This document shows, in pieces, positions 1-26,772 of a stretch of 32,085 nt of DNA. Both the position numbers and the translations under genes were made by a program. Location of the stretch: positions 499 to 32,583 of the forward strand of contig CAZYQJ010000001.1 in the NCBI GenBank assembly GCA_964649925.1. Direction: 5' to 3'. The DNA comes from an uncultured Litorilinea sp. (GTDB lineage: Bacteria > Chloroflexota > Anaerolineae > Caldilineales > Caldilineaceae). The notes under the pieces are model-generated. The model was not told the origin of the DNA, ran no database searches, and worked only from the letters and a program-made list of their open reading frames with translations. The first letter of the stretch is position 1, and each line of letters opens with the position of its first letter.

Positions 1-916
1 CCAGCGAAATCGACTGATGCCCTTCGTCAATTCGAAAGACCGCAATGCTGTCATGCCCGCGGTTGGAGACATAGACGACGCGGCCCGATGGGTGAACGTG
101 GATGTCGGCACACCAACTCTTGTCGCGGAAATCCTCCGGCAGCGCCGAGACCGTTTGGCTTTCGAGCAGCGTCCCTTTTTGCTCATCCACCTCAAAAACC
201 GTCACCGTCGAATCCAGTTCATTGGCGACAAAGGCCAGCCGCCCAGACGGGTGAAATGCCATATGCCGCGGCCCTGCCCCCGATTTGGTGCGCGCCCACG
301 GCTGCTCATGATAGGTCACCAGTTTGTACTGTTCAGCGTCCAGTTCGTAGATCAGCACCTTATCCAACCCCAAGTCCGGCACATAGACAAAACGCCCGCT
401 GGGGTCGAAATTCACCGAATGCGGGTGAGGGGCTTGCTGCCGCTGTGGATGCACGCTGGCCCCTTCATGCTGCACCAGGTCCGCCACCGCGCCGAGCGCA
501 CCGTTCTCCAGGATCGGCAGCACACACACGCTGCCGCTGCCATAGTTCGCCACCAGGAGACAACGCTGGCTCGCATCCACAGCCAGATGGCATGGCGAAA
601 GCCCATGCGTAGATTGCTGGTTGAGAAACTCAAGCGAACCGGTTGTGCGGTCTATCGCAAACGCGCTGACAGCGCCGCTGTTCTTGCCGTCGGCCCCGGT
701 CCCTTCGTTGACACAGTAGAGAAAACGACGGCTGGGATCGATGGTCAGAAAGGATGGGTTGGCAACCCCTAATGTTTTCTCCACCAGCGTCATCGCGCCC
801 GTCGCCATATCAAAGCGGAACAGATAGATCCCCTCTCCTTTGCCGCCGACATGCGTTTCGCGGCGCGTGTACGTGCCGACATAGACAAGCCGCTCGGTTT
901 TCTCAGGATTTGCCAT
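1..916 (-). CDS. Lactonase, 7-bladed beta-propeller family (6-phosphogluconolactonase/YbhE-like); 3' end lies beyond the left edge of the window
   Basis: Absent from the ORF track because no stop lies in the window. My reverse-strand translation from ATG 916-914 reads MANPEKTERLVYVGTYTRRETHVGGKGEGIYLFRFDMATGAMTLVEKTLGVANPSFLTIDPSRRFLYCVNE... and stays open to position 1 (...HPHSVNFDPSGRFVYVPDLG...MAFHPSGRLAFVANE...IHVHPSGRVVYVSNRGHDSIAVFRIDE). The repeated HP-SG-R-hYV-N blades are typical of this lactonase family. Confidence 0.8.
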   Translation of the reverse strand, partial: MANPEKTERLVYVGTYTRRETHVGGKGEGIYLFRFDMATGAMTLVEKTLGVANPSFLTIDPSRRFLYCVNEGTGADGKNSGAVSAFAIDRTTGSLEFLNQQSTHGLSPCHLAVDASQRCLLVANYGSGSVCVLPILENGALGAVADLVQHEGASVHPQRQQAPHPHSVNFDPSGRFVYVPDLGLDKVLIYELDAEQYKLVTYHEQPWARTKSGAGPRHMAFHPSGRLAFVANELDSTVTVFEVDEQKGTLLESQTVSALPEDFRDKSWCADIHVHPSGRVVYVSNRGHDSIAVFRIDEGHQSISL

Positions 917-980
917 CTGTCTCTCCAGTCCAGAAGTTGCGGGCATTACCGCCCAGAGTCATTTTGCGCTTCAGATGCAC

Positions 981-2156
981 CTAGGGTAGCGCCGCGGGCC
1001 AACCAAATCTACCGCTCGCATCCGGCAGCAAGTCAGCTACGGCAATCACGGCATGTAACGGCAGCGCGCCATAGATATGCGGAAATTGCTCCTGGGCCAA
1101 CGGGTCACCGGCAAGCGCCGGTTGCTCGTAACGCAGCGTCGATTCTATTGTGCGAAGGTCAATACACAATACCACCAATTCATCGCCAGGGGTAAAGAAA
1201 GCATTCGCTACATGCAGCATCTGTTGGCGCGTCGAGCAGTGAATAAATCCCTCCGTATCGAGAGACGCGGCCCGATACACCCCAACCGGCAGCGCGGCCA
1301 GCCACTCGCGCAGCGGCGCGATATGGTAGATCGGTTCAGGCGGGCCCGTCATCTCCTCCGGCTGCAGGGCTAGTGCCAGATCATGCCAGAAGGCCGCAGG
1401 GCTGTCTGTAACGTACCAACGCACCCCCATATCTAGAAAACGGCGCAGCGCGGCAGGCGTCACCCGAAAGGGCCGCAGTTGCAGCACCACGCCGGCATCC
1501 TGCAGACGGCGCTGCGTGTGCGCCAAGTACGCGTCGTCCAGCGCATAGACCGGTTCAGACCCTGGCTGCGCCACCTGCACATGAAGCTGTAGCTGGCTGA
1601 TCGGTGGCATACCGGAGGCCAGCCATTGATCAACACGCGCCCGGATCGCTTCTGGCGGCCCGCCCGCCCAGGTCATAGCAGGCGCACCAGGAAAGACCCG
1701 CTGTATCTCGGCCAACATCTCTGCATGGCCGCTGACAAAGATCACCTGGCCGGTCACGCCAAACTCATCCAGCTTGCCGCGCAGCACGCTCAGGTCTACC
1801 GCCTTTGGCTCGACATACAGGCGGCGGCCTGGCTGGCGCGCCATCTCGGTCAGCACGTCGTCAAACATCGGCACGCGCGCCCCGCGAAATGCCGGACTGA
1901 AACGGATGCCCGCATCCACGCGTTGTACCTCGTCCAGCATCCATTCCGCTAGCGGGCGATCCGCGACCGCCGCGGGTACATCCGTCGTGCGCGCCAGCGT
2001 GGCATCATGCACACAGACCAGCGCACCGTCCGCGGTTACACGCACATCCGTTTCCGGGATAGCGCCGGGATAACGCCATGCATGGCGAAAGGCAGGCATG
2101 GTGTTCTCCGGCGCTTCGTCCACAGCCCCACGATGAGCCTGGTAAAAGACGTCCAA
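981..2156 (-). CDS. Fusion protein: glycerophosphodiester phosphodiesterase (GDPD) domain + C-terminal DUF952 domain
   Basis: 391-aa ORF with a TTG start at 2156. The N-terminus carries the GDPD signature (YQAHRGAVDEAPENTMPAF...ETDVRVTADGALVCVHD). The C-terminal ~115 aa (IYHIAPLREW..EGFIHCSTRQQ..LRYEQP..FPHIYGALPLHAV) fit the DUF952 pattern (GFIH-ST, LR-E, FPH-YG-L). Confidence 0.8.
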   Translation of the reverse strand: MDVFYQAHRGAVDEAPENTMPAFRHAWRYPGAIPETDVRVTADGALVCVHDATLARTTDVPAAVADRPLAEWMLDEVQRVDAGIRFSPAFRGARVPMFDDVLTEMARQPGRRLYVEPKAVDLSVLRGKLDEFGVTGQVIFVSGHAEMLAEIQRVFPGAPAMTWAGGPPEAIRARVDQWLASGMPPISQLQLHVQVAQPGSEPVYALDDAYLAHTQRRLQDAGVVLQLRPFRVTPAALRRFLDMGVRWYVTDSPAAFWHDLALALQPEEMTGPPEPIYHIAPLREWLAALPVGVYRAASLDTEGFIHCSTRQQMLHVANAFFTPGDELVVLCIDLRTIESTLRYEQPALAGDPLAQEQFPHIYGALPLHAVIAVADLLPDASGRFGWPAALP

Positions 2157-2186
2157 TGCCGTTACCCCCTGATCTCCAGCCTCATC

Positions 2187-3248
2187 TCAGTTCCACCCGT
2201 TGGCATAGGCAGTTTCATACATCGCCACAATATTCTCCGGCGGGCTGACAGCCTGAATGTTATGGCACGGCGCGAGAATATAGCCGCCACCCTTGCCCAG
2301 CGTTTCCAGGTTTTCCAACACTTCAGCCTCCACCTCCTGTACCGTGCCAAAGGGGAGCGTGTGCTGGTTGTCCATCCCACCGTGCAGAACCACTTGTGAG
2401 CCAAAATCGCGCTTGAGCGCGGCTCGCTCCATCCCCGGTGACCGCCACTGGATCGGGTTCAGCACATCAATCCCTGCGGCGATCATGTCCGGGATGATCT
2501 TGCGGATCGCGCCGTCGCTGTGGAAAAAGACGTACACGCCAGCGCTGTGCGCCAGCTCCATCATGCGCTTCATGCGCGGGATAAAGAACTCACGGATGAC
2601 TGCGGGTGAAAACAACAGGCTCTCCTGCCCGCCAAAATCCTCGGCGACATAGGAGAGGTCGATTCTGCCCGGCAGTTGTTCATAGATGCGCAGCGTATTC
2701 TGGTAGGCGAAGTCAAACAGCTTGTCCAGGCAGTAATGTACCAGTTCAGGCTGCAGCACCAGGTCCATATACGCCTGCTCGCGCCCACGCAGGTCGGCAT
2801 AGATCAGGAACGGTTCAGAACCGCCCCCCTGAATCGGGTACTGCTTGCGGTTGCCACGCACCTGATATGGGATGCCCCGGTAGTCAAACCAGTCCACCGT
2901 GGGCCAGCGGTAGTTCGCCTCAATGTCCGCCACCGTGTCATATTGGGCCAGCGGGGCATTGACACACTCTTTATAGCGCCCTGACCCATAGCTCACCCAC
3001 CGGAAGCGCCTCCCATACATATCCTCAAAACGCGGCAGTTTTGCCCCCACATAGCGCGGCGCAACACTCACCACCTTGTCAATGTGCAGCCGCTCATACA
3101 TCTCCCAGCGGTTGCCCACCCCAAGGTGGCGCATCACTATGTCGGTTGCCTCCGGCGTGCCCCAATAGTCCAGGGGAACCCGGTCCGGTGTGTGCCGCGC
3201 CAGCACTGCCTGCCACCGCTCGCGCGGGGTCATGCTCTCGCGGGCCAT
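2187..3248 (-). CDS. Uroporphyrinogen-decarboxylase (URO-D) family protein, MtaA/CmuA-like corrinoid methyltransferase candidate
   Basis: 353 aa; ATG 3248 is preceded by GAGGTGA. Length and sequence pattern fit a URO-D-type TIM barrel. It starts 9 nt after the stop of a B12-binding protein gene. The position I align to the MtaA H-x-C metal motif reads FFHSDG, and a Cys lies in ILAPCHN near the C-terminus. Confidence 0.7.
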   Translation of the reverse strand: MARESMTPRERWQAVLARHTPDRVPLDYWGTPEATDIVMRHLGVGNRWEMYERLHIDKVVSVAPRYVGAKLPRFEDMYGRRFRWVSYGSGRYKECVNAPLAQYDTVADIEANYRWPTVDWFDYRGIPYQVRGNRKQYPIQGGGSEPFLIYADLRGREQAYMDLVLQPELVHYCLDKLFDFAYQNTLRIYEQLPGRIDLSYVAEDFGGQESLLFSPAVIREFFIPRMKRMMELAHSAGVYVFFHSDGAIRKIIPDMIAAGIDVLNPIQWRSPGMERAALKRDFGSQVVLHGGMDNQHTLPFGTVQEVEAEVLENLETLGKGGGYILAPCHNIQAVSPPENIVAMYETAYANGWN

Positions 3249-3257
3249 GCGCTCACC

Positions 3258-3893
3258 TCACCCGACAATTCCGTTGGCCAGCGTCGCGCACTGGCTGGCA
3301 TCCGGCGCAAACCCGTCCGCGCCGATACGCTGGGCAAATGTCTCGGTGACCGGCGCGCCGCCCACCAGTACCTTGACCCGATCGCGCAGCCCGGCGGCCT
3401 TCAACTGGTCGATCACCACCCCCATATTGGGCATGGTCGTCGTCAGCAGCGCCGACAGGGCGACGATATCAGGCTGTTCGCTCTGAACCGTCTCCACAAA
3501 TCGCTCCGGCGCAACGTTCACCCCCAGGTCGATGATCTCAAAGCCAGCGCCCTCCAGCATCATGCCCACTAGGTTCTTGCCAATGTCGTGCATGTCCCCG
3601 CGCACTGTGCCAATCACCACCTTGCCTTTTGGCTCCACCGCCGCTTCGGCCAGATGCGGTCGCAGAAGCGCCAGCCCAGCCTTCATGGCACGTGCCGACA
3701 CCAGCAGTTCTGGCACAAAATACTCACCCTCTTCAAAGAGAGCCCCCACCTCGCGCATGGCTTCGACCAACCCGTCATCCAGCAGGCTCTTGGCAGACAG
3801 GCCCGCCGCTAATCCGGCCTGGACCGCAGCTTCTGTCTCCGGCGCATTTCCGGCGATGACCGCCTCACGGACTGCATTAACATGCTCACTCAT
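3258..3893 (-). CDS. Corrinoid (cobalamin-binding) protein of a methyltransferase system
   Basis: The ORF track starts at 3965. I prefer ATG 3893 (AAGGAG 8 nt upstream), giving 211 aa. B12-binding motifs present: D-x-H-x-x-G (GDMHDIGKN), S-x-L (SALLTTT), GG (VLVGGAPV). An N-terminal helical cap domain is also present. Confidence 0.85.
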   Translation of the reverse strand: MSEHVNAVREAVIAGNAPETEAAVQAGLAAGLSAKSLLDDGLVEAMREVGALFEEGEYFVPELLVSARAMKAGLALLRPHLAEAAVEPKGKVVIGTVRGDMHDIGKNLVGMMLEGAGFEIIDLGVNVAPERFVETVQSEQPDIVALSALLTTTMPNMGVVIDQLKAAGLRDRVKVLVGGAPVTETFAQRIGADGFAPDASQCATLANGIVG

Positions 3894-3978
3894 TCGTCCA
3901 TCTCCTTTGCTGTCGAGAAATTGCGGGATGGAAACCCATCCCTCACAGGGGATATCCTCTAACACAAACAGGCATGCG

Positions 3979-4848
3979 TCAGCAGCCCGTCAAAAAGCGC
4001 GCGCCCTGCAAGATCCCTAGCTTCTCCGCATCAGGATCACGATGGAAATTGGAATCCTCCAGTTCGATTGACACCGCGCCCGCATAGCCAAACTCAACCA
4101 GCAGCCGCAAGATCTCAACCCAGCGTGCTATGCCATGACCTGGGATCGTGTAGCGCCACGTCATGCCCGAGAACGGCTGCGGCTTGGCGAACGTCGCCGG
4201 TTGCTCAGTGCCATACTCGTACAGGTTTTCCTCCAGGATCATCGTATCCTTGCCATGCACATGATAGACCCGCTCACCAAACTCACGCAGAAAACGCAGG
4301 GGGTCAATCCGCATGCGGATCAGGTGCGACGGGTCATAGTTGATCCCCATCGCAGGCGAAGCCACCTGCTCGAAGAAAGCGCGATAGCCTTCCGGCGTGC
4401 AGCAGAGCGCCCCGGGACCTGGCCAGCCCTCGATTACCAGTTTGGCATTGGCTTCCTCCAGCGTCGGTGCCAGTTCGCCAAAGCTCTCGACCATATAGCC
4501 AAAATTCTCCGCCCGCGGCAGTGCCGGGTCTTCGGGCAGCATCACCAGGAAGTGATTGACCGGCCCCAATGCGGCGCAGGCGCGGATATACTCGGCGTTG
4601 CGCGCCAGGGCTTCGGCGCGCCGCCCGCGGTCCGCTGCAATCATGCCCTTGTTGTCGGGCATGTCCACGCTGCCAATGCGCAGCCCCGCATCCACGACCG
4701 CCCGCCCGGTGACATCGCCATCGGTGCGCAGATCGATCACCTCCAGTTCATTCTCCTTCGCCCAGTTCACCAGGGCATTGAGGTCTTGTTGCCACTCCCC
4801 ACCCCCGCGCCGAAAACCGATGGGGAAACCGCCGGTTCGAGTCTTCAC
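3979..4848 (-). CDS. Sugar phosphate isomerase/epimerase, xylose isomerase-like TIM barrel
   Basis: 289 aa; GTG start with AAGGA 8 nt upstream. Pattern typical of the AP-endonuclease-2/xylose-isomerase-like barrel (..NFGYMVESFG.., ..YHVHGKD.., ..AVSIELED..). Confidence 0.7.
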   Translation of the reverse strand: MKTRTGGFPIGFRRGGGEWQQDLNALVNWAKENELEVIDLRTDGDVTGRAVVDAGLRIGSVDMPDNKGMIAADRGRRAEALARNAEYIRACAALGPVNHFLVMLPEDPALPRAENFGYMVESFGELAPTLEEANAKLVIEGWPGPGALCCTPEGYRAFFEQVASPAMGINYDPSHLIRMRIDPLRFLREFGERVYHVHGKDTMILEENLYEYGTEQPATFAKPQPFSGMTWRYTIPGHGIARWVEILRLLVEFGYAGAVSIELEDSNFHRDPDAEKLGILQGARFLTGC

Positions 4849-4893
4849 AGTCGCAATCCTTTGCTATGGTTGTAGTTCTATGCTTGTGGTGTC

Positions 4894-6459
4894 CTATGGC
4901 TCAATGGCTGGCTGTTCGGCGACGATCTCGCCAACAACCTGTCCCTGCCACTCAGGTGGAATGGGAATCCCCAGCAAGTGTAAGATCGTGGGCGCAACGT
5001 CCGTGATGTGCACAGGCTGTTGAATGATATGGTTCGCGCGCACCCCGGTTCCCCACACAATCCAGGGAATGGTCATGTCCTCGGCTTGCGCTGTGCCATG
5101 ACCGTGGTCATGCCCGCCGTGATCGGCCATGACGATACAGATAGTATCCTCCAGTTCGCCTGCGGCGTCCAGCGACGCGATCACCCTCCCGATGATTGCA
5201 TCGGACTGGGCAACCGCTTGCAGATAGGCGGACGACATCCAGCCGTAGCGATGGCCTGCGGCGTCGGTAGCTTCCAGATAGACAAAGGCAAATGTAGGCC
5301 GCTGGCGCGCGATCTCGCGTGCGGCCACGCCTCCGAGCTCCTCAGCATTGCTGGGTGAAAAACGCCGGTAGACGCTGAGATCGAGCGTGCCGGGCGGAGC
5401 CATATCGCGCAGTTGTTCCCAGGAATAAAAAGCCGCTGTGTCATATCCGCTGTCGTTGATCACCTCGATCAAACTCGGCAGCGGCGGGTCCAGCGGCGTC
5501 CAATCGTTGGTCATGATGCCGTGCTGTTCGGGATGGGCCGAGTAGAAAAGCGACGTATGGCAAGGCAGCGTGATCGAGGGCATGACCGTGCGCGCCTGAC
5601 CTGTCCATGATCCCTGGCGGCGCAGCCGGTCCATCACCGGCGCGTCGGCTGCCTCCAGCGCATCCGGGCGGCAGCCGTCCAGCATAAAGAGGATCACCCG
5701 CTTTGCCACGGGCGGCAGCGACGGGGCCTCCGCCTGCGCTGTCTCGGCGGCATACTCCGCCATCACCTGCAAGAACACATCCCCATGATCCAGGTTGATC
5801 AGGTCGGCCCCCCAGCGCAGCACTTGGCGAAAGGCCGCGGGGTCGTTCTCCGGATGATAGACCATGATCCGCAGGCCGCGCCTCCGGCATTCGTCCACCA
5901 GTGCCGCCGACATATCCTTCAGCCGCACTTCGACCAGGTTCGCCTGGTATTCCTCATCGGCGCGAATGACGTCGGCCACACTCTCCACGTTGATCTTCAA
6001 CGCCAACCTGCTGTCCAGACGCCGGAACTCGCGTGCGTCCGCATCATTGCCAAACCAGAAGAAACAGGCGTCCTGCATCTCCAACGTATGGATGAGGGCG
6101 ATCAACTCCGGCAGATTGGCCGCCTTCACATCTAGAAACACCTTCGCCTGCCCCTTGATCCAGCGCAAGAACGGCTCCAGCCGCGGCACGCGCTCCTGGG
6201 CAAAGTCGGGATGAAACCAGCTTCCGGCGTCCAGCGCGTCGATCTCGCCCGAAGTCAAGTCGCAGAAATTGCCGCGGCCATTCGTCGTCTGTTCCACCGA
6301 AGGCCCGTGCAAGAGGTAATGCACCCCATCACGGCTGAGATTGACATCGACCTCCACATAGTCAACGCCCCACGCGATACACTGCCGCGCTGCCGCATAG
6401 GTATTTTCCGGAGCAACCTTGTTTGCGCCTTTGTGACAGACGATCTCAATTCGACTCAT
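4894..6459 (-). CDS. Fusion protein: GDPD domain + nucleotide pyrophosphatase/phosphodiesterase (NPP, alkaline-phosphatase superfamily) domain
   Basis: 521 aa. N-terminus has GDPD motifs (VCHKGANKVAPENTYAA..YVEVDVNLSRDGVHYLLHG). The C-terminal half has NPP motifs (ILFMLDGCRPD; nucleophile region MPSITLPCHTSLF; metal site MADHGGHDHGHG). The start overlaps the upstream HAD stop as ATGA (6456-6459). Confidence 0.8.
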   Translation of the reverse strand: MSRIEIVCHKGANKVAPENTYAAARQCIAWGVDYVEVDVNLSRDGVHYLLHGPSVEQTTNGRGNFCDLTSGEIDALDAGSWFHPDFAQERVPRLEPFLRWIKGQAKVFLDVKAANLPELIALIHTLEMQDACFFWFGNDADAREFRRLDSRLALKINVESVADVIRADEEYQANLVEVRLKDMSAALVDECRRRGLRIMVYHPENDPAAFRQVLRWGADLINLDHGDVFLQVMAEYAAETAQAEAPSLPPVAKRVILFMLDGCRPDALEAADAPVMDRLRRQGSWTGQARTVMPSITLPCHTSLFYSAHPEQHGIMTNDWTPLDPPLPSLIEVINDSGYDTAAFYSWEQLRDMAPPGTLDLSVYRRFSPSNAEELGGVAAREIARQRPTFAFVYLEATDAAGHRYGWMSSAYLQAVAQSDAIIGRVIASLDAAGELEDTICIVMADHGGHDHGHGTAQAEDMTIPWIVWGTGVRANHIIQQPVHITDVAPTILHLLGIPIPPEWQGQVVGEIVAEQPAIEP

Positions 6460-7004
6460 ATGCGCGCCTGTTCTATTCCTTGTTCAATCATTGGGATAAC
6501 TGACAGAAGTTCCAGCGGCGTTTTGATCCGATAATCAGGCCGCTCCAAGCTGGAGATAGGCACTTTGCGGCGGCGTGGCGACCAGTCGATCCACACGCTG
6601 ACCATGCCCAACGCGTTCGCGCCTGCCACATCACGTTCCAGGTTGTTCCCCACCATGATCGTCCGCCCATAGTCCTGTGGCGCGATGCCCAGCGCATCCA
6701 GCGCATAGCAAAAGATGGCAGGGTCTGGCTTTTCCACGCCCAGCGCGCCGGAGATGGCACGGACGGCAAACCGTTCAAACAGACCGAAATGACCCAACAC
6801 GTTGCGGAAGGTGCCCACTGGGCCATCCGCCACCAACGCCAGCGGGTAGCCTTCAGCCTGCAGCGCGCACACAAGTTCCGCCGCACCGGGGATCAACTCG
6901 GCCACCTGAGTCTCGCCCGCGCTGTTTTTCACCTCCGTCGCCTCATCGACCAACGTATCGCCACTGTCCAGACAGATCGCCAGCAGCCGTCCCCTGGGTT
7001 GCAT
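6456..7004 (-). CDS. HAD-superfamily hydrolase
   Basis: 182 aa with the Rossmannoid HAD pattern (LLAICLDSGDTLVDE; ..LALVADGP..; ..MVGNNLERDVAGANALG). Motif I reads DSGDT, so the Asp+2 position is Gly by my alignment. Confidence 0.75.
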   Translation of the reverse strand: MQPRGRLLAICLDSGDTLVDEATEVKNSAGETQVAELIPGAAELVCALQAEGYPLALVADGPVGTFRNVLGHFGLFERFAVRAISGALGVEKPDPAIFCYALDALGIAPQDYGRTIMVGNNLERDVAGANALGMVSVWIDWSPRRRKVPISSLERPDYRIKTPLELLSVIPMIEQGIEQARI

Positions 7005-7015
7005 AGATGTGCGTC

Positions 7016-8368
7016 CTATCGTAGTGCTGCCGGGCCATCCGGCAGGGGCAGCAGGTCGTCCACGCGTATCAACTTGTTCGTCGCCATAGCGTGGTTGGCC
7101 GCGATCCCCATCATGATCGACGCTGCGCCGTCAATGTGTGAGGCAGCGCGCGCATACGGGTCTGCGGGTGGATTGGGGGAAAGGATCTGCTCCAACATCA
7201 CCGCATCGCCGCCACCATGCCCCCCCTTCGCTTCAGGGATCTCGACCGAGTAGGGTTTGCCAAACATGGGGAAGACGCGGATATACTTACCGCCGAACGC
7301 AGCTTCCGCCTCTTCATCACGGCGCAGCGTTTCCTCTTCCCCAGCTACAAACTGCTTGCCAACCTGCTCTACCAGTTCAATCTCCAGCCGCCCCTTGTCC
7401 CCCGTGATGGCGACCCGGTAGCCTTCCCACGGGCTGTAGGCGATCAGCGAATAGGTGAGCAGCGTGCCGTTGCGATAGCGCGCTGTCAGGCTCATCGTAT
7501 CCTCGACCGTCACATTCTGCCCAAACACGTTGCGGTCGCGCACATACCCGCTGTCTGCCTCAGCCTCCAGATAGAGGGCGCGCAGCACTGGATGCTTGTC
7601 CAAAAAGAGCGCAAACGGATCGTTCGCTGCCTCGGCATGGCCTGTATAGCGCGCGTAGCTGTAGCTTTCACCACGCCGCGCCGCGTTCTCCTCCCCATAA
7701 AAGAACAGATCCCCCATCGCAAAGACCTCTGCTGGATAGGATTGGATCCACCAGTTGATCAAGTCGAAATGGTGCGTTGCCTTGTGCACCAACAGCCCGC
7801 CTGACTTGTCCTTCTCGCGATGCCAGCGGCGGAAATAGTCGGCCCCGTGGTACGTGTCCAGCACCCACTGGAAATTGACGTGCAGCGGCCTGCCCACCAC
7901 CCCCTGCATCAATAACTCACGCACCTTAGTGCTTAACGGTGCATAGCGATAATTGAAGGTCACGCGCAATGATCGGCCCGTCCGCTCAATGGCATCAAAA
8001 ATCGCGCGCGCCTTCTCGTCGTCGATGGTCATCGGCTTTTCGGTGATGGCATCGCACCCCAGTTCCATGGCGCGGATGATGTAGTGGTGGTGGGTGACGT
8101 CCATCGAAGTCACAATCACTACATCTGGGCGGGTCTGTTCCACCATCTGGTCAAACTGGTCAGGGCGATACGTAGGCAGCGGCTCACGCCCGTATTCCTC
8201 GCGCAGTTGGGTGTTGTACCAGGCCATGCGCGTGGGGCTGAGGTCACACAACGCCACCAGTTCATTGTGTTCCGCATACGTTCCGGCAATGGCGTCAACA
8301 TACATCTTCGCACGCCCCCCTGTGCCGACAATCGCATAGCGGCGCTTTCGATCCTCACTATCCATCAT
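7016..8368 (-). CDS. Gfo/Idh/MocA-family NAD(P)-dependent oxidoreductase
   Basis: The ORF track starts at 8428. I prefer ATG 8368 or 8365 (GGGAAGGA just upstream), giving about 450 aa. N-terminal Rossmann motif [14 protein letters not shown], then the typical ..CDAITEKP.. and dimerisation domain. Confidence 0.8.
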
Positions 8369-8409
8369 CCAATCCTTCCCTGTTGGTTGCTTGGTGTGTA
8401 TGGGGAATC

Positions 8410-8430
8410 CAATGGGAACAATCCCCATTG
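8410..8430. promoter_or_regulatory. Perfect inverted repeat CAATGGG-N7-CCCATTG in the divergent control region (candidate operator or 5'-UTR hairpin)
   Basis: Read directly from the sequence: caatggg (8410-8416), aacaatc, cccattg (8424-8430). It lies about 40 nt upstream of the preferred oxidoreductase start. Confidence 0.35.
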
Positions 8431-8496
8431 CATTGGGTAATTTTCCTCACGCTTGCAGCTACACCCTAGGGTAAATCCTCATGGCGCTCCGTTCAA

Positions 8497-8507
8497 AATG
8501 GGAACAA
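8497..8507. promoter_or_regulatory. Second copy of the 11-bp motif AATGGGAACAA (first copy at 8411-8421)
   Basis: Exact 11-mer direct repeat 86 bp apart inside a ~245-bp intergenic region. The first copy overlaps one arm of the inverted repeat. Confidence 0.3.
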
Positions 8508-8613
8508 AGATGGGTCTTCAGCCCGGTGTCGCGGCTCACCATCCATGATATTGTCAACTTAGCACTAACTAGAACCATTGCGTTCTTTAGAGGTACTTAT
8601 AGAGGAGGATACC

Positions 8614-8742
8614 ATGTCACTTACTGAAGTTGGACTCGTCGCGGGCATGCTGATTGCTGTCGGCGTTGTTCGCTTTGGCATCCCGGCGGCCCTCACCTGG
8701 GCCTGCTGCCGGGTGTTACACCGCATCAATCCCGCAGGCTAG
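8614..8742 (+). CDS. 42-aa single-pass membrane protein (not in the ORF track), first gene of the cytochrome module
   Basis: ATG 8614 is preceded by AGAGGAGGA with 4-5 nt spacing; stop TAG at 8740-8742. Translation: MSLTEVGLVAGMLIAVGVVRFGIPAALTWACCRVLHRINPAG. It shares the signature VVRFG(I/V)P..LHR(I/L) with the N-terminus of the ORF at 11795. Confidence 0.6.
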   Translation: MSLTEVGLVAGMLIAVGVVRFGIPAALTWACCRVLHRINPAG

Positions 8743-8780
8743 GCTCACCCCTAGCCTTGTCCCATTCTGGAGATATTCTT

Positions 8781-9644
8781 ATGGTTGCGAACCATGTGCG
8801 CCTTGCACCCTGGGCCGGTCGCATCGCGGCGCTGCTCATCGCCGTCTGCCTCACTGGCTGGAGTTCATCGACCCTGTACGCCCAATCTGCCGCCCCTGCC
8901 CCGTCGGACGCAGTCACTTCCGAGGCGGTCCCTGCAGAGGGTGATGATGTATGCGTCTCCTGCCATGCCGACGAAAGCGCGGCGTGGGAAGCATCGCCCC
9001 ACGGTGACGGAGAAGGCGGCGGCGCATCGTGCGTAGCCTGCCACGGCGAGTATGTTAAAGGCCACCCGGCAGAAGGGCCAATGTCTCTCAAAGTGGACTC
9101 TTCCTCCTGCGAAGGCTGCCATGCCAAAACCTTCGACCAATGGAGCGAGAGCCATCACGCCGCCGAGGGCGTCCAGTGCATTAGCTGTCACAAGCCCCAC
9201 TCCCAGGAATTGCGGCTCACCGACGAGACGCTTTGCGAGAGTTGCCATCGCGAATCTGTCGAGGATCCCTTCCATACGGCCCACTGGGAAGGCGATGTGA
9301 CGTGTACCTCATGCCATCTATCCGACGCCCCGCACACGGGAGCCGTCGCCAGCGGTGATGCAGCGATTGGGTTAGCCATGGCGCCCACTCACGATTTCAC
9401 CACGGTCTCGTCTGCGAAGTGCCTTGACTGCCACCGCGAGGCGGTGACACAGACCACAACAGAGCCAACCACGGTCGCCGCGAGCCTACCCTTGACGACC
9501 ACCGACGCCGCATCATCAGAGCCAACGCCGCTCGCTACGGCCACGCTGTCGGCAGCGAATCTTGGCTTTGGCTTGGGCATCGGCGGCATCCTGGGCATCG
9601 TCTTTATGTTGATCGCCGCCACCTACGGTTTTGGGAAGAAGTAA
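8781..9644 (+). CDS. Heptaheme c-type cytochrome, secreted and C-terminally membrane-anchored
   Basis: Seven CxxCH motifs: CVSCH, CVACH, CEGCH, CISCH, CESCH, CTSCH, CLDCH. N-terminal signal-like segment (RIAALLIAVCLTGWSSSTLYA). Thr/Ser/Pro-rich linker, then a hydrophobic tail LGFGLGIGGILGIVFMLIAATYGFGKK. I prefer ATG 8781 (GGAGA 7 nt upstream) over the TTG at 8757. Confidence 0.9.
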   Translation: MVANHVRLAPWAGRIAALLIAVCLTGWSSSTLYAQSAAPAPSDAVTSEAVPAEGDDVCVSCHADESAAWEASPHGDGEGGGASCVACHGEYVKGHPAEGPMSLKVDSSSCEGCHAKTFDQWSESHHAAEGVQCISCHKPHSQELRLTDETLCESCHRESVEDPFHTAHWEGDVTCTSCHLSDAPHTGAVASGDAAIGLAMAPTHDFTTVSSAKCLDCHREAVTQTTTEPTTVAASLPLTTTDAASSEPTPLATATLSAANLGFGLGIGGILGIVFMLIAATYGFGKK

Positions 9645-9646
9645 TC

Positions 9647-10573
9647 ATGACTGCACCCGATACCTCCCGACGCACATTTTTGAAAGGCCTGGGAGCCGGT
9701 GCGCTGAGTCTGGTCGCCGTCAGCAGCCAGCTCACCCCGGCCCACGCCAGCAGCACCGTCAATACAGATGACGCCTATGGCGTGTTGATCGATCTCACCC
9801 GCTGCACCGGCTGTGATTCCTGCGTGCTGGCCTGTAAGCAGAAGAACAACCGGCCCAACCCAGACACGAGTGCCGACCGTCTCTCTAGCGATGCCTACTC
9901 TGCGCTGGAACGCTACCCGATCATCAACGCCGACGGCGCGCTGGCGGAGCAAGCAGTCAAACGCCAGTGTATGCACTGCCTCCATCCGGCCTGTGTATCC
10001 GCCTGTACCGTGGGTGCGCTGCGCAAACAGCCTAATGGCCCTGTTGTCTACGAAGCGGACAAATGTATCGGCTGTCGCTACTGCCAGTATGCATGCCCTT
10101 TCGGCGTGCCCACCTATGACTGGAACAATGCCCTCGGCCTGATCCACAAGTGTAACCTATGCGCCGACCGCCTGGCAGAAGGCGAACTGCCCGCCTGCGT
10201 AGCTTCATGCCCCAACGGTGCGCTGCGCTTCGGCAAACGCTCAGCCCTGCTGGCTCAGGCCCACGCCCAGATCAAGACCAATCCGGGCCGCTATGTCGAC
10301 CACGTCTACGGCGAAACCGAAGCGGGCGGCACATCTATGCTCTATCTCTCGGCGGTACCCTTCGCACAGCTTGGCTTCCCGGTGCTGGGCAGCAAACCCA
10401 TCCCGCAAGATGCCGAGCGGATCATGGAAAGCACGCCGATCATCGCCTTGGGGATGGCTACGCTTGCCACCTCGCTCTATTTCATCACCCGTCGCCATCG
10501 CGAATTGGCCGCCGAAAACGCCGCGGCTCAGCCCGCAGATCCAGGCGACGCGCACTCGCACCAGTCTGATTGA
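9647..10573 (+). CDS. Tat-exported four-cluster iron-sulfur subunit (NrfC/HybA/PsrB-like) with C-terminal TM helix
   Basis: Twin-arginine signal SRRTFLKGLGAGAL. Four Cys clusters: CTGCDSCVLAC, CMHCLHPACVSAC, CIGCRYCQYACP, CNLC..CVASCP. C-terminal helix IIALGMATLATSLYFI. Starts 2 nt after the cytochrome stop. Confidence 0.9.
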   Translation: MTAPDTSRRTFLKGLGAGALSLVAVSSQLTPAHASSTVNTDDAYGVLIDLTRCTGCDSCVLACKQKNNRPNPDTSADRLSSDAYSALERYPIINADGALAEQAVKRQCMHCLHPACVSACTVGALRKQPNGPVVYEADKCIGCRYCQYACPFGVPTYDWNNALGLIHKCNLCADRLAEGELPACVASCPNGALRFGKRSALLAQAHAQIKTNPGRYVDHVYGETEAGGTSMLYLSAVPFAQLGFPVLGSKPIPQDAERIMESTPIIALGMATLATSLYFITRRHRELAAENAAAQPADPGDAHSHQSD

Positions 10574-10582
10574 GAGGTACGC

Positions 10583-11737
10583 ATGGCTACCCAAGTTACC
10601 TACCGCCGTCCGACGACTTGGCAGTTCCCGATCCCGCCTCTATCCTGGGCTACGTTGGGCATCCTCGGCTTCCTGACCGTCATGGGGATCTTCGCCGGGG
10701 TCGCCCGTCTGCTGGCCGGGCTGGGGATGACCACATCGCTCACCGATCAAATCCCTTGGGGCATCTGGATCGGCTTTGACTTTACGCTCATCGCCCTCTC
10801 CGGTGCAGGCTTCACCATGGCTGCAGTCGGTCATGTCCTGCACCTGCACCGGCTGGAGGCGGCTGTACGCCCGGCCCTATTCGCAGGCTTCTTGGGCTAC
10901 ACAGCCGTCCTTCTGATCCTTGTGCTTGACCTGGGGCGTCCCGACCGCTTCTATCACTTCATCTTGTACTGGAACCTGCACTCGCCCCTGTTCGAAATCT
11001 GCTGGTGCGTGTTGCTTTATACCACAGTGCTAGTGCTTGAAGTCAGCCCGGACCTCTTGCGTTGGCTAGGCTGGGAACGGCTGCGCCGCATCTCGCAAGC
11101 GATCATGCCGGTTGTCTGCATCCTGGGCATCACGCTCTCCACGCTGCACCAGTCCACCCTGGGCACGCTGTACGTCAACATGCCGCACCGGCTCCATCCG
11201 CTGCTGTACACCCCGTTCATGCCCGTGCTGTTCTTCACCACCTCCGTGATGGCAGGCCTAAGCGTCGCCATACTCGCCTACCGGATTTCTGTCCGCATCC
11301 AAAACAAGAATGAAGACCTGGGTGTTGCTTCGGGGCTTGGCGTTGGGATAGCTGGCGTGTCGCTGATCTACCTCCTGATCAAAGGCGGTCTGCTCTGGTG
11401 GGAAGGCAAATTGCCGCTGCTGTTGGTAAATGACGCCGTTACACGCGCCTGGTGGGTCGAAATCACCGTGGGCGCAATGATTCCGCTCATTCTGCTTGCC
11501 ATTCCGAAGTTGCGCCGCCACAACCTCACCTTGTGGGTCGCGCCACTCTTGGTCATTATCGGCGTTGGCATGAATCGCTTCAACGCCACGCTGCAGGGCC
11601 AAACCCCGCCCTGGACGGAGAGTTGGAGCTACACGCCGCACATCCTCGAATGGCTTTCGACCATCGGCATCATCGCAGGGGCCGCCCTTGTCTGGTATCT
11701 TGCCATGCGTTTTCTTGTGCGCCCTGACGAGCATTAG
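10583..11737 (+). CDS. NrfD/PsrC/HybB-family polytopic membrane subunit (quinone-interacting)
   Basis: 384 aa with about 8-10 hydrophobic helices. Family-typical segment DQIPWGIWIGFDFTLIALSGAGF. Located 9 nt after the FeS gene. Confidence 0.85.
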   Translation: MATQVTYRRPTTWQFPIPPLSWATLGILGFLTVMGIFAGVARLLAGLGMTTSLTDQIPWGIWIGFDFTLIALSGAGFTMAAVGHVLHLHRLEAAVRPALFAGFLGYTAVLLILVLDLGRPDRFYHFILYWNLHSPLFEICWCVLLYTTVLVLEVSPDLLRWLGWERLRRISQAIMPVVCILGITLSTLHQSTLGTLYVNMPHRLHPLLYTPFMPVLFFTTSVMAGLSVAILAYRISVRIQNKNEDLGVASGLGVGIAGVSLIYLLIKGGLLWWEGKLPLLLVNDAVTRAWWVEITVGAMIPLILLAIPKLRRHNLTLWVAPLLVIIGVGMNRFNATLQGQTPPWTESWSYTPHILEWLSTIGIIAGAALVWYLAMRFLVRPDEH

Positions 11738-11794
11738 TGACCGCCGATCACACTGCTGGCGCACAACACCTGACCCGGCTTGGAGGTCGTACCG

Positions 11795-12181
11795 ATGCCT
11801 AGCCCACAGGTCCTGGAAATCCTTGCCCTCGTCGGCATCTTTGTGGTTCGCTTCGGTGTCCCCTTGCTCCTGAGTGCAGCCGTTGTCTGGTGGCTTCACC
11901 GCCTCGACACACGATGGAGCAAGACCACTCCAGCGGTTACAGCGATTCCGGATGATGCACCCGTCGAGGCAAGTGCGGACTACGCCCAGATTATCAGCGA
12001 ACCTTGCTGGGTCTACCGTGCCTGCCCCGAAGAGCGTCGTAATCAGTGCCCGGCCTATCTCCATCCGGAGGTTGTCTGTTGGCTGGCACGGCTGCGCTGC
12101 GATGGCCGGTTGACAAGCAACTGCCGCTGCTGCTCCGTGTTTGCCACCAGCCATGTCAACACGACCGCGGCTGCCGACTGA
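11795..12181 (+). CDS. 128-aa protein: N-terminal TM helix + C-terminal 8-Cys domain, unknown family
   Basis: ATG 11795 with GGAGG 8 nt upstream (ORF track starts at TTG 11780). Sequence MPSPQVLEILALVGIFVVRFGVPLLLSAAVVWWLHRLDTRW..., then CWVYRACPEERRNQCPAYLHPEVVCWLARLRCDGRLTSNCRCCSVF. Basic residues after the helix suggest the Cys domain is cytoplasmic. Confidence 0.65.
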   Translation: MPSPQVLEILALVGIFVVRFGVPLLLSAAVVWWLHRLDTRWSKTTPAVTAIPDDAPVEASADYAQIISEPCWVYRACPEERRNQCPAYLHPEVVCWLARLRCDGRLTSNCRCCSVFATSHVNTTAAAD

Positions 12182-12186
12182 CCGGC

Positions 12187-14467: not shown

Positions 14468-14509
14468 CAGAGCCCAGCAGCCCAATATCGCCGCCGGGAT
14501 GCCCTACAC

Positions 14510-14968: not shown

Positions 14969-14988
14969 CGCGCTGCACTCCTTTGCCC

Positions 14989-17217: not shown

Positions 17218-17278
17218 CTCGCCACCATTTCTACCCGTATTGTACCTGCTTCGTTTGGCCGCCGCAGCTCGCCGCCGC

Positions 17279-26761: not shown

Positions 26762-26772
26762 CGCTTTCTTCC

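Follow-up and report, generated by a model that had tools for sequence, protein, structure and literature searches.

The minus-strand gene block at positions 1 to 8368 of the window (the whole stretch of DNA that was analysed, 32,085 nt, from a compost Chloroflexi bacterium of the family Caldilineaceae) is a real operon restricted to this family, and it probably degrades fragments of the cell surface or of lipid head groups that are ester-linked and methylated. We read it, with a probability of about 0.45, as a three-module operon for catabolism and phosphorus scavenging in the cytoplasm, with optional demethylation, acting on small ester-linked glycoconjugate or head-group fragments. Module A comprises a HAD-like hydrolase and two GDPD fusions, module B a corrinoid protein and a UroD-type protein, and module C a Gfo-type dehydrogenase, a TIM barrel and a lactonase. 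The catabolic or scavenging route proposed in the first-pass annotation is partly supported: the block, its conservation and the link to head groups stood, while an obligatory linkage and inositol as substrate did not. No description of this combination of genes was found in the searchable literature.

The annotated seven genes and a lactonase gene cut by the window edge, eight co-oriented genes in all, were found among the ORF calls, and every domain named earlier scored above its Pfam gathering score. In block order they encode a Gfo/Idh/MocA-family NAD(P) sugar/polyol dehydrogenase (Gfo; 7016..8368, 450 aa from the ATG at 8368), a small, almost capless HAD-superfamily hydrolase (HAD; 6456..7004, 182 aa), a GDPD-NPP fusion (4894..6459), a metal-dependent TIM barrel of the xylose-isomerase-like AP_endonuc_2 family (3979..4848, 289 aa), a corrinoid (cobalamin-binding) methyl-carrier protein (3258..3893, 211 aa), a UroD-superfamily methyltransferase-like protein and putative MT1 (UROD; 2187..3248, 353 aa), a GDPD-DUF952 fusion (981..2156) and, as the last gene, a 7-bladed beta-propeller lactonase resembling 6-phosphogluconolactonase (1..916), whose start codon is preceded by GGAGAG. 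The HAD stop overlaps the GDPD-NPP start in an ATGA at 6456-6459, as had been noted. The Pfam corrinoid matches were obtained with the ORF at 3258-3965, before its start was corrected. Because AAGGAG lies 8 nt upstream and the orthologues are 210-211 aa long, the most likely start of the corrinoid gene is the ATG at 3893, and the TIM-corrinoid spacer becomes 85 nt, against about 13 before. The other spacers are 11, -4, 45, 9, 30 and 64 nt in block order, so that the earlier figure of 9-45 nt was only roughly right. This layout supports a tightly packed single block. The divergent intergenic region upstream of Gfo (8369..8613, ~245 nt), presumed to hold the block promoter, contained no sigma-70 consensus match; on its other side lies an oppositely oriented small-peptide/cytochrome c/NrfCD operon. 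The divergent layout upstream of Gfo also occurs in the related loci L081, L088 and L172.

Transcription was seen in compost metatranscriptome contigs along the block, which are low-depth assemblies that may include DNA. They bridge three gene junctions, Gfo/HAD (6818-7031), corrinoid/UROD (3024-3321) and UROD/GDPD-DUF952 (2001-2373), in agreement with a gene block, but none bridges the 85-nt TIM-corrinoid junction. A hairpin in that spacer was not significant (z = -0.41), and no Rfam element or terminator-like site was reported in any spacer of the block. In sister clades the TIM-corrinoid spacers measure 230-307 nt and carry -10-like sequences. Since the junction is unbridged and the sister-clade spacers are longer and carry such sequences, the corrinoid pair may be under its own promoter.

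All eight genes, or as many as a shorter contig reaches, recur among relatives in which UROD or TIM is 80-90% identical. Gene order is identical in L081 (complete set), in L088 (whose contig ends inside UROD) and, from GDPD-NPP onward, in the JGI contig of P0004. In L173, a more distant genome with a UROD 74% identical, the block is rearranged and holds GDPD-NPP, PbfA, TIM, PhnX, a CUT1 ABC transporter, the corrinoid protein, UROD, GDPD, the lactonase and a galactonate-dehydratase-like MR_MLE protein. L172 has Gfo, GDPD-NPP, PbfA, TIM, GDPD and DUF952 as separate adjoining genes, and the lactonase, without the corrinoid pair. L085-L087 combine Gfo and TIM with the corrinoid protein, UROD and the lactonase; they lack a phosphodiesterase, and two of the three have a sulfatase within the block instead. 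L171 has module A without B or C. The three modules are separable and recombine among relatives, and there is no single fixed pathway; the linkage claimed at first does recur in Caldilineaceae, but it is modular and not obligatory. Since the modules occur apart in L172, L085-L087 and L171, a single substrate that combines a diester with a methyl group need not be assumed.

The same separations would be expected of a mosaic operon, in which synteny and the shuffling of operons within Caldilineaceae put modules without a common substrate side by side: A in Pho-type phosphorus scavenging from glycerophosphodiesters and nucleotides, B as an independent methyl-utilisation pair and C as an independent sugar-oxidation pair. 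We regard this as unlikely, although several observations agree with it. UROD and TIM orthologues are mostly solitary outside Caldilineaceae; unrelated housekeeping genes are syntenic too in sister clades (NadE, AKR and SerB in L085-L087), and conserved gene order may partly be mere shared ancestry; and the longer spacer ahead of the corrinoid gene, a possible promoter, lies at the junction not crossed by RNA. Against it, varied esterase-type genes were repeatedly inserted within the block and not beside it (HAD with GDPD-NPP, GDPD with or without DUF952, sulfatase, PbfA, PhnX and an ABC transporter), while the flanking Gfo, TIM and lactonase genes were retained throughout. Furthermore, modules A and B, TIM and the lactonase are still together in the rearranged L173, and an unrelated Planctomycetota locus (L052) also has a UROD system beside Gfo and sugar-salvage genes.

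Module A is the putative ester-cleaving module. The GDPD-NPP fusion consists of a GDPD domain at about residues 1-240 (Pfam 82 bits; PDB match 1zcc, E 3.5e-41) and a short NPP-like domain of the alkaline phosphatase superfamily at about residues 250-521 (Phosphodiest, 109 bits), which matches Xanthomonas NPP (2gsn), phosphonate monoester hydrolases and sulfatases in the PDB. The sequence of the NPP domain shows the nucleophile motif T-x-P-x-H and D/H residues as metal ligands, and its GDPD partner has H-K-G where H-R-G is expected. The fusion is also found in L081, L088, L171, L172, L173 and the JGI contig, whereas nearly every one of the 80 loci retained from a JGI metagenome scan has stand-alone homologues of ~270 aa. 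In the GDPD-DUF952 fusion (82 and 90 bits) the GDPD domain is canonical, with intact HRG/ENT/ExD/HD motifs and conserved IHCS and FPHIYG; DUF952 is a domain of the Tpt1-like ADP-ribosyltransferase fold without assigned function. This fusion occurs in only about 12 protein clusters, and the few that are taxon-named are from Caldilineaceae. The HAD gene lies immediately upstream of GDPD-NPP in L081, L088 and L171. Its fold was borne out by Pfam (Hydrolase/HAD_2, 59 bits; best NCBIfam match TIGR02253, below cutoff), but motif I is D-S-G-D-T and not the canonical DxDxT, so that the Asp+2 general acid is missing and the phosphatase label is therefore only putative. The form D-[SC]-G-D-T is common to the window, L081 and L171.

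PbfA, the R-HAEP ammonia-lyase, comes directly after GDPD-NPP in two sister operons (abutting in L172, overlapping in L173; 696 and 701 bits, cutoff 525), and one of them, L173, also has PhnX (335 bits, cutoff 220). Neither gene is present in the window operon itself, and no transporter genes are present in the window. R-HAEP is known from an Acanthamoeba polysaccharide and a sphingophosphonolipid head group (PMC8154272). Both are bona fide enzymes of aminophosphonate head-group catabolism, and their linkage to GDPD-NPP in the sister operons ties module A to phosph(on)oester head groups. The phosphodiester-linked head group of the earlier annotation fits these neighbours.

Gfo and the TIM barrel had been taken for an inositol/polyol-type pair. 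The inositol reading, in which cleavage and demethylation of glycerophosphoinositol or of methylated cyclitols (pinitol, for example) would be followed by IolG- and IolE-like steps, seems very improbable to us. IolG and IolE are indeed the top NCBIfam matches of the two proteins, and the logic of Gfo, TIM barrel and demethylation is that of rhizopine (moc) catabolism. However, the scores fall far under the equivalog cutoffs (Gfo 87 bits against 355, TIM 42 against 290), and IolB, IolC, IolD and IolJ are absent from the window and the related loci. Gfo (58 bits for the N-terminal and 76 bits for the C-terminal Pfam domain) carries an EKP motif; among solved structures it is closest to DgpA1 and glucuronide-3-dehydrogenase (E about 1e-16 to 1e-12), and it lies near GFOR alongside the glycoside-3-dehydrogenases. 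Its orthologues in L081, L085-L088 and L172 are 75-89% identical. The TIM barrel (Pfam 103 bits) has E140, D172, H198 and E262 invariant among its best 120 homologues, whose identity is 67-100% and whose length is 289 aa in nearly all cases. Its predicted model (pLDDT 87) is closest in fold to 3-keto-sugar enzymes, the best matches being SCO6571, the 2-hydroxy-3-keto-glucal hydratase AtHYD, YcjR and ketose 3-epimerases. The lactonase (Pfam 341 bits) is in the matching position in L081, L083, L085-L087, L172 and L173, and a lactonase with sugar-acid (aldonate) dehydratases adjoins the cluster in L087, L171 and L173. The lactonase and these dehydratases speak for oxidation of an aldose or glycoside and not for breakdown of inositol.

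The methyl-transfer module annotated for the corrinoid pair is credible. The corrinoid protein (B12-binding_2, 72 bits; B12-binding, 105 bits) has the DxHxxG motif in GDMHDIGKN. UROD (URO-D, 75 bits) belongs to a very conserved, uncharacterised clade with orthologues 62-90% identical across phyla. In 6 of 76 loci outside the window's clade a corrinoid-protein gene lies within 4 kb of UROD; corrinoid-protein and Pterin_bind genes are near it only within that distance, and this TIM family, GDPD and the lactonase are absent from the same 76 loci up to 10 kb of flank. The order in L052 is corrinoid protein, Pterin_bind, RACo, UROD orthologue, Pterin_bind, adjoining Gfo, a GHMP sugar kinase and a nucleotidyltransferase. 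L028, from Litorilinea, has a corrinoid protein, several URO-D paralogues, the UROD orthologue, Pterin_bind, DUF1638, RACo and MTHFR. Because its orthologues lie inside these complete systems of corrinoid protein, MT2 and RACo, the most probable role of UROD is that of a substrate:corrinoid methyltransferase (MT1). The 32-kb window itself has no gene for MT2, RACo or any other methyltransferase.

The best NCBIfam matches of the corrinoid protein are of the MtgC, MtbC and MtaC types, all below cutoff, and the top one is the glycine-betaine-type MtgC (224 bits). This match would suit a methyl group on the head-group nitrogen, the choline-like variant of the first-pass annotation: GDPD, NPP and HAD would free choline, N-methylethanolamine or N-methylated aminoethylphosphonate from glycerophospho(no)diesters, and the corrinoid pair would demethylate the released amine. 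PbfA and PhnX in L172/L173 likewise show that sister operons handle aminophosphonate head groups. We consider this variant improbable. It leaves Gfo, TIM and the lactonase without a role, and the pair is present in L085-L087 without a phosphodiesterase. To our knowledge, the characterised amine and quaternary-amine MT1s are all of the MttB, MtbB or MtmB families, none of the UroD superfamily. Characterised UroD-type MT1s act on O-methyl, S-methyl or halomethane substrates (PMC13222342). On the other side, N-methyl-AEP is reported to be a common natural phosphonate that PhnW cannot process (PMC12366243).

In the three-module reading that we prefer, module A would act on small fragments with phosph(on)odiester linkages after their import. 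Head groups of phospho- or phosphonolipids, fragments resembling teichoic acid and pieces of phosphonoglycan are candidate sources, and cleavage would yield a free alcohol or sugar part and a phosphorus-bearing part. UROD, as MT1, would take the methyl off one released moiety to give CH3-Co(III) on the corrinoid protein. UroD-superfamily precedent favours an O-methyl on a sugar or polyol, and an N- or P-O-methyl head group is also possible. The methyl would then pass to tetrahydrofolate through a pterin-binding MT2, and a RACo activase would keep the corrinoid cofactor reduced, both presumably encoded elsewhere in the genome. In module C, dehydrogenation by Gfo, keto-sugar isomerisation or hydration by TIM and lactone opening by the lactonase would deliver the carbohydrate skeleton to sugar-acid catabolism.

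The direction of methyl flow would be different if UROD were of MT2 type, passing the methyl from methyl-corrinoid to a thiol or other acceptor as in a split MetH- or MtaA-like system, or serving a biosynthetic methylation. We think this quite improbable. The nearest solved relative is the thiol methylase MtaA (4ay7; phmmer E 8.5e-6, Foldseek E 7e-13, TM 0.64), MetE is also among the fold matches, the family is conserved and mostly solitary in a housekeeping-like manner, and the pterin-binding proteins of L052/L028 could conceivably charge the corrinoid protein with methyl from CH3-THF. Yet the context in L028 and L052 (URO-D paralogues, RACo, DUF1638, MTHFR) is the layout of methyl-oxidising demethylase clusters, and UROD scores 48 bits with the MtaA/CmuA model against a cutoff of 235. 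The thiol-activating His/Cys/Cys zinc ligands are not kept: where MtaA has H-x-C and C, UROD has the invariant H243-x-D245 and C328-H329, an O-ligand-friendly set that would fit the activation of an ether or alcohol oxygen.

The block consists of eight co-oriented genes on the minus strand of the window (1-8368). In order of transcription they encode a Gfo/Idh/MocA dehydrogenase (Gfo; 7016-8368), a small HAD hydrolase (6456-7004), a GDPD-NPP fusion (4894-6459), a xylose-isomerase-like TIM barrel of the AP_endonuc_2 family (TIM; 3979-4848), a corrinoid protein, a URO-D-family protein (UROD; 2187-3248), a GDPD-DUF952 fusion (981-2156) and a seven-bladed-propeller lactonase that is cut by the window edge (1-916). 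Each domain named in the first-pass annotation was borne out with a Pfam score above the gathering score, and the ATGA overlap it had described was found at 6456-6459. The corrinoid gene is present as it had reported, but the gene start was corrected. The ATG at 3893 is most likely the start, because AAGGAG lies 8 nt upstream and the product then matches orthologues of 210-211 aa. With this start the spacers, in transcription order, measure 11, -4, 45, 85, 9, 30 and 64 nt. Inspection of the translations gave no obvious signal peptide in the first residues of any of the eight proteins, so the enzymes of the block are presumably cytoplasmic.

Metatranscriptome assemblies from compost and manure hold fragments of the locus. 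RNA contigs are spread along the block at low depth and span three of its junctions: Gfo/HAD (contig span 6818-7031), corrinoid/UROD (3024-3321) and UROD/GDPD-DUF952 (2001-2373). The TIM-corrinoid junction lies outside their coverage (3713-3982 is uncovered), and the contigs are hence uninformative on bridging there. Because these contigs are assemblies and may include DNA, they are consistent with co-transcription of the block but short of proof. No terminator-like site was found in any intergenic spacer of the block, and the promoter-like matches, two in number, are as many as shuffled sequence would give. A riboswitch or other RNA element ahead of the corrinoid gene was rejected: no Rfam element was found across the whole window, and a 7-bp hairpin in the 85-nt TIM-corrinoid spacer is no better than in shuffled sequence (z = -0.41). 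The TIM-corrinoid spacers of relatives are not alignable. That of the related locus L081 (8844-8970) carries a 25-nt tandem duplication (CGTGCTCAYGCACGCACTGCGTGA, twice) which is absent in the window.

The gene context of relatives was taken from metagenomic contigs throughout. Among the closest genome records are the Chloroflexi MAG CFX7 (L001), with a UROD 89% identical to that of the window, and the Caldilineaceae MAG GCA_020845455.1 (L088), with operon proteins 84-89% identical; near-identical DNA occurs in metagenomes of compost, manure, digester and invertebrate gut, and 94% of the sampled sequence words of the locus are present in compost assemblies. The full gene set is present in L081, and gene order is kept in L088 and in the JGI contig of P0004, another relative, as far as these contigs extend. 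Partial sets are kept elsewhere. L083 has UROD, GDPD-DUF952 and lactonase with an MFS transporter. L085, L086 and L087 (UROD 72-73% identical) have Gfo, TIM, corrinoid protein, UROD and lactonase, with a sulfatase in two of the three, and no phosphodiesterase on any of these contigs. L172 (Gfo 75%, TIM 76%) encodes Gfo, GDPD-NPP, a class-III aminotransferase-fold protein, TIM, GDPD, a separate DUF952 and lactonase; the corrinoid pair is absent. L173 (TIM 71%, UROD 74%) encodes GDPD-NPP, the aminotransferase-fold protein common with L172, TIM, a 276-aa HAD, a CUT1 ABC transporter, corrinoid protein, UROD, GDPD, lactonase, an MR_MLE dehydratase and an MFS transporter. Its UROD orthologue (8938-9997) appears near the 3' end as two overlapping ORFs, by frameshift or assembly error. 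L171, assembled from a Litorilinea aerophila run, has HAD, GDPD-NPP, an IlvD/Edd-type dehydratase and GDPD with sugar-acid genes alongside, and lacks Gfo, TIM and the corrinoid pair. The lactonase is always the last gene of the block.

The block is made up of three modules: A, HAD/GDPD-NPP/GDPD with or without DUF952; B, corrinoid protein/UROD; and C, Gfo/TIM/lactonase. Among the best 80 GTDB UROD loci, the window's neighbours are common only to the closest loci, and outside the Caldilineaceae-type group UROD and TIM orthologues are mostly solitary. The linkage of the gene set, for which the first-pass annotation had proposed a comparative-genomics check, is thus conserved in L081, L088 and the P0004 contig, yet family-restricted and modular, as the partial sets of L085-L087, L171 and L172 and the solitary orthologues elsewhere indicate. 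The separability of modules A, B and C, together with a possible own promoter ahead of the corrinoid gene in sister clades, speaks for a mosaic operon without shared substrate, in which case the locus would be an ordinary assortment of scavenging genes. We weigh this explanation seriously but think it rather unlikely.

In the corrinoid protein the Pfam domains B12-binding_2 (72 bits) and B12-binding (105 bits) were recognised, and the DxHxxG motif reads 'GDMHDIGKN' in the translation. The UROD gene follows 9 nt downstream. Its family is strongly conserved: identity is 62-90% for the relatives listed, relatives are encoded by at least 591 GTDB species, and the best 80 loci belong to Chloroflexota, Planctomycetota, Poribacteria, KSB1, Aerophobetes, Abditibacteriales, Spirochaetaceae and Bathyarchaeia. 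The nearest solved relative of UROD is MtaA (phmmer E 8.5e-6; Foldseek E 7e-13, TM 0.64, model pLDDT 89), with UroD and MetE as the next matches; the protein is remote from every solved structure. No solved substrate:corrinoid methyltransferase (MT1) of the UROD clade was found, phmmer against PDB chains with E up to 1 giving only MtaA (~20% identity) and UroD proteins. Against the MtaA/CmuA family model TIGR01463, UROD scored 48 bits, below the cutoff of 235, and against the MtaA equivalog 30 bits versus 400. In the phmmer alignment with 4ay7 the zinc ligands of MtaA, His-x-Cys...Cys, are not kept: FH243-S-D245-G stands opposite H-I-C-G, and C328-H329 opposite G-C. H243-x-D245 and C328-H329 are invariant in 20 UROD orthologues, and such an H/D/(C)H ligand set would fit the activation of an oxygen leaving group.

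Neither a second methyltransferase (MT2, pterin-binding or MtaA-type) nor an ATP-dependent activase (RACo/RamA) is encoded in the 32-kb window. In the Planctomycetota locus L052, which has a 63%-identical UROD orthologue, the gene order is corrinoid protein, Pterin_bind, RACo, UROD, Pterin_bind, and the adjacent genes encode two more URO-D paralogues, Gfo, a GHMP sugar kinase and a sugar-1-phosphate nucleotidyltransferase. L028, from a Litorilinea MAG (4179-16354), encodes a corrinoid protein, a Pfam-less protein, several URO-D paralogues, UROD, Pterin_bind, DUF1638, RACo and MTHFR. The Pfam-less protein (368 aa), located between corrinoid protein and methyltransferases and also found in L007 and L032, may be a new component. 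RACo was confirmed by Pfam in L052 and L028 and matched by BLAST/HMM in L061 and L064. In loci outside the clade of the window, genes for corrinoid proteins and Pterin_bind were found only within 4 kb of UROD; an enrichment of Gfo beside UROD in these loci is too weak to be of use (about 10 hits in 495 kb near UROD versus 7 in 554 kb farther away). RACo matches were seen in four loci.

By gene content, the two independent clusters of L052 and L028 are complete methyl-to-tetrahydrofolate systems of the O-demethylase type, and their URO-D proteins would be substrate-side MT1s because the pterin-binding protein is their MT2. Since UROD orthologues sit in these complete systems, the pair of the window is most likely an MT1 with its corrinoid protein, MT2 and activase being encoded outside the window. 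UROD might otherwise act in an MT2-type or split-MetH-like role; MtaA and MetE among its matches would fit this, while the low MtaA scores and the pterin-binding MT2 beside its orthologues in L052 and L028 speak against it. We consider such a role very unlikely.

With UROD as MT1, the favoured methyl group is an O-methyl on the carbohydrate. This preference draws on three points: characterised UroD-type MT1s, to our knowledge, use O-, S- or halide-bound methyl groups; the H/D/(C)H ligands would suit an oxygen leaving group; and the UROD system adjoins sugar genes in Planctomycetota too. The first-pass annotation had offered, as one variant, the demethylation of an N-methyl head group, choline-like and released from a glycerophosphodiester. 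The methyl would here be bound to nitrogen, and we judge this variant quite unlikely.

The same annotation had taken Gfo and TIM as a pair typical of inositol/polyol catabolism. The inositol pathway was rejected on the low scores of Gfo for IolG (87 bits versus 355) and of TIM for IolE (42 bits versus 290) and on the missing partner genes, none of IolB, IolC, IolD and IolJ being found in the window or the related loci. The nearest solved relatives of Gfo are the glycoside/C-glycoside 3-dehydrogenases DgpA and a glucuronide-3-dehydrogenase, followed by GFOR and inositol dehydrogenases. Catabolism of a methyl-inositol is given very little credence. In the TIM barrel the E-D-H-E metal site is intact, and the closest folds are SCO6571, the 2-hydroxy-3-keto-glucal hydratase AtHYD, the 3-keto-glucoside epimerase YcjR and ketose 3-epimerases. 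Relatives of the block add a galactonate-dehydratase-like MR_MLE protein, IlvD/Edd-type aldonate dehydratases, a KDPG-type aldolase and a PfkB kinase. Taken together, the nearest relatives of Gfo and TIM, the terminal lactonase and these sugar-acid genes suggest that module C would oxidise aldoses or glycosides in the direction of sugar acids rather than break down inositol.

In module A, the NPP domain scored 109 bits for Pfam Phosphodiest, and its translation holds 'SITLPCHTS', 'MLDGCR', 'TDAAGH' and 'ADHGGH'. The Thr nucleophile (T-x-P-x-H) and the Asp/His metal ligands are present, and the sulfatase motif C-x-P-x-R is absent from the domain. PDB matches of the GDPD-NPP fusion include phosphonate monoester hydrolases, which are found among the NPP-type enzymes of the alkaline phosphatase superfamily. 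Both GDPD domains scored 82 bits against a Pfam cutoff of 23.6. The one in the GDPD-DUF952 fusion has all four motifs, H-R-G, E-N-T, E-x-D and H-D; that of GDPD-NPP matches the Agrobacterium GDPD 1zcc (E 3.5e-41), and its predicted activity is less certain because its motifs read H-K-G and L-H-G instead of the canonical ones. The HAD protein has the nucleophile Asp, and motifs II-IV match the Pfam model. Its motif I reads D-S-G-D-T (D-[SC]-G-D-T when orthologues are included), not DxDx(T/V), and lacks the Asp+2 general acid, a deviation kept in three orthologues and seen in L081 and L171. The protein is almost capless, with ~25 residues at the cap position, and its chemistry may differ from that of a standard phosphatase.

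A scan of JGI metagenomes did not show the GDPD-NPP fusion: of 80 retained loci, nearly all encode stand-alone NPP-like proteins of ~270 aa, and no conserved partner gene was found around 80 such homologues. The GDPD-DUF952 fusion is confined to ~12 protein clusters, the few with a taxon name being Caldilineaceae. DUF952 has a Tpt1-like ADP-ribosyltransferase fold. It is fused to GDPD in the window (981-2156) and is a separate gene directly after the orthologous GDPD in L172 (10001-11206). This Rosetta-stone pattern, fusion in the window's clade and adjacency in L172, suggests that DUF952 may act on the GDPD substrate or product.

The aminotransferase-fold protein of L172 (7516-8928) and L173 (987-2360) was identified as the R-HAEP ammonia-lyase PbfA (696 and 701 bits; NCBIfam cutoff 525), and the 276-aa HAD of L173 (3454-4284) as the phosphonoacetaldehyde hydrolase PhnX (335 bits; cutoff 220). 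The PbfA gene abuts or overlaps the orthologous GDPD-NPP gene in both loci. According to PMC8154272 and PMC12366243, PbfA converts R-HAEP to phosphonoacetaldehyde, which is then cleaved by PhnX; the former source gives R-HAEP as known from Acanthamoeba membrane polysaccharide and a sphingophosphonolipid head group. Natural phosphonates are mainly phosphonolipids and phosphonoglycans. The location of PbfA immediately after GDPD-NPP suggests that in the L172 and L173 genomes GDPD-NPP could free HAEP-type head groups from an ester. In the window's operon the position held by PbfA in the sister operons is taken by the capless HAD, and the PhnX and PbfA models are not among the listed NCBIfam matches of its proteins; the class-V aminotransferase of the window (25670-27238) scored 156 bits versus 360 for PhnW. 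With PbfA and PhnX lacking from this operon, only the head-group-ester theme carries over from the sister operons. The racemase PbfF was rejected as a relative of Gfo, since PMC12366243 assigns it to the family of 2-hydroxyacid dehydrogenases.

An operon on the plus strand, divergent from Gfo, encodes a 42-aa membrane peptide (8614-8742), a multihaem cytochrome c (8757-9644), an NrfC-like 4Fe-4S protein (9647-10573) and NrfD (10583-11737). L081, L088 and L172 show this divergent layout too, so the cytochrome/NrfCD operon travels with the block. Beside it on the minus strand (12187-14485) are a GAF and HisKA_3 histidine kinase and a NarL/LuxR-type response regulator, which could control either of the neighbouring gene groups; the response regulator, at least, was seen in L088 and L172, and part of the kinase also in L088. 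The minus-strand stretch 14989-21422 holds a SerB-like ACT-HAD protein (14989-16257), an aldo-keto reductase (16258-17385) and a glutamine-dependent NAD synthase (19320-21422), as well as an APH/homoserine-kinase-like protein and a 2-hydroxyacid dehydrogenase. In L085-L087 the reductase and SerB genes lie directly ahead of Gfo, with NAD-synthase genes farther upstream in L085 and L087, and in view of this layout the lineage of the window seems to have gained its kinase/regulator and cytochrome genes by insertion. A BhcC-like protein of the aldolase/D-Ser-dehydratase fold (21453-22538, minus strand) and the long class-V aminotransferase (minus strand; BhcA-, PhnW- and pyridoxamine-transaminase-like) are both below curated cutoffs, and between them lie an M19 dipeptidase, a CehA/McbA-type PHP hydrolase and a TauE exporter. 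The long ORFs 26852-29026 (plus strand) and 11258-12154 (minus strand) have no Pfam match, overlap well-supported genes on the opposite strand and are probably spurious high-GC ORFs.

We propose, with a probability of roughly 0.45 and with every catalytic step inferred, that modules A, B and C act on imported ester-linked fragments. Small fragments would enter through an MFS or ABC importer, seen in relatives and absent from the window. Module A would cut a diester or phosphonate monoester, and the HAD-like enzyme would take off residual phosphate. Module B would strip the methyl group as CH3-Co(III) and pass it to tetrahydrofolate via a distal MT2, and module C would oxidise the carbohydrate part. 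A bolder, joint version, which we hold to be unlikely, makes UROD the MT1 of a new class of corrinoid demethylases for a non-aromatic substrate, either a methyl phosph(on)ate ester or an aliphatic methyl ether such as that of an O-methylated sugar or cyclitol. This MT1 would be tied, in Caldilineaceae, into a pathway in which GDPD-NPP and GDPD-DUF952 free head groups, among them hydroxy-aminoethylphosphonate in the sister operons, from phosphonolipid or phosphonoglycan fragments. Actinomycete phosphonoglycans reportedly carry glycerol-phosphonate esters and O-methylgalactose, which is not used as evidence here.

We know of no enzyme for anaerobic carbohydrate demethylation, or for the release of conjugated phosphonates upstream of PbfA/PhnX; the bolder version would supply both steps. 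If the proposal is true, it would give a function to a conserved, widespread and so far uncharacterised UroD-superfamily clade and extend corrinoid demethylation past aromatic ethers, halomethanes, methanol, amines and thiols. It would also point to the enzymes that free phosphonate/phosphate head groups from lipids and glycans ahead of the known PbfA/PhnX steps. Candidates for these are one GDPD in fusion with an NPP-type (phosphonate-)monoester hydrolase and another coupled to DUF952, and DUF952, a domain without known function, would gain a first metabolic context. Head-group release bears on phosphorus turnover in soil and compost. No description of this gene combination, or of corrinoid-dependent carbohydrate/sugar demethylation, was found in the literature searched; the system is built from known families.

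The O-demethylase-type MT1-CP-MT2-AE systems (OdmABCD, Vdm, MtvABC, MtoABCD, CdmBCA) resemble the window's locus in that a corrinoid-protein gene adjoins a UroD-superfamily methyltransferase, and the orthologous loci L028 and L052 share with them a pterin-binding MT2 and RACo, L028 also MTHFR. Unlike them, the window's locus has no MT2 or activase, and its pair stands amid sugar and phosphodiesterase genes, not aromatic catabolism. The methanogen CoM methyltransferases MtaA/MtbA/MtsA share the UroD fold, the nearest solved structure and the pairing with a corrinoid protein; however, UROD falls short of their family model (48 bits versus 235) and does not keep the H-x-C and C zinc ligands. A type 1 mlp cluster, which needs at least two Mlp paralogues and a Ram/RACE gene (Kountz & Balskus, PMC10418091), was rejected, as the window has one URO-D gene and no activase. 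The bathyarchaeial MtgB O-demethylases were likewise rejected as the family of UROD on their description as ~300-aa proteins reported without homology to known MT1s and from Bathyarchaeia only (PMC10989822).

Hydrolytic aminophosphonate clusters (PhnW/PhnX with PbfA) are matched by the sister operons L172 and L173, which hold PbfA, and by L173 with PhnX, whereas the window's operon has none of PbfA, PhnX and PhnW. For such clusters, the papers searched for these terms, among them PMC8154272 and PMC12366243, make no mention of a GDPD/NPP esterase, Gfo/TIM/lactonase genes or a corrinoid pair. The glycoside 3-dehydrogenase/3-keto-glycoside pathways (DgpA, glucuronide-3-dehydrogenase, AtHYD, YcjR) likewise pair a Gfo protein with a xylose-isomerase-like TIM barrel, but identities are ~15-20%, and the block has no second TIM-barrel lyase and does have a lactonase.

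In scavenging by UgpQ/GlpQ and by agrocinopine AccF/AccG, a cytoplasmic GDPD-type diesterase is followed by a phosphatase. The block shares this diesterase-then-phosphatase logic, the 1zcc match and, in L173, a CUT1-type ABC transporter. It differs in two GDPD paralogues that both carry a further catalytic-type domain by fusion (NPP in one, DUF952 in the other), in the absence of ugp/pst genes nearby and in the coupling to sugar-oxidation and corrinoid genes. Rhizopine (moc) catabolism uses MocA of the Gfo family, the TIM barrel MocC and the oxygenase demethylation system MocDEF. Compared by description, the moc system demethylates by an oxygenase rather than a corrinoid protein and is without phosphodiesterases, but the logic is alike: a dehydrogenase, a TIM barrel and a demethylation step serve the use of a methylated cyclitol.
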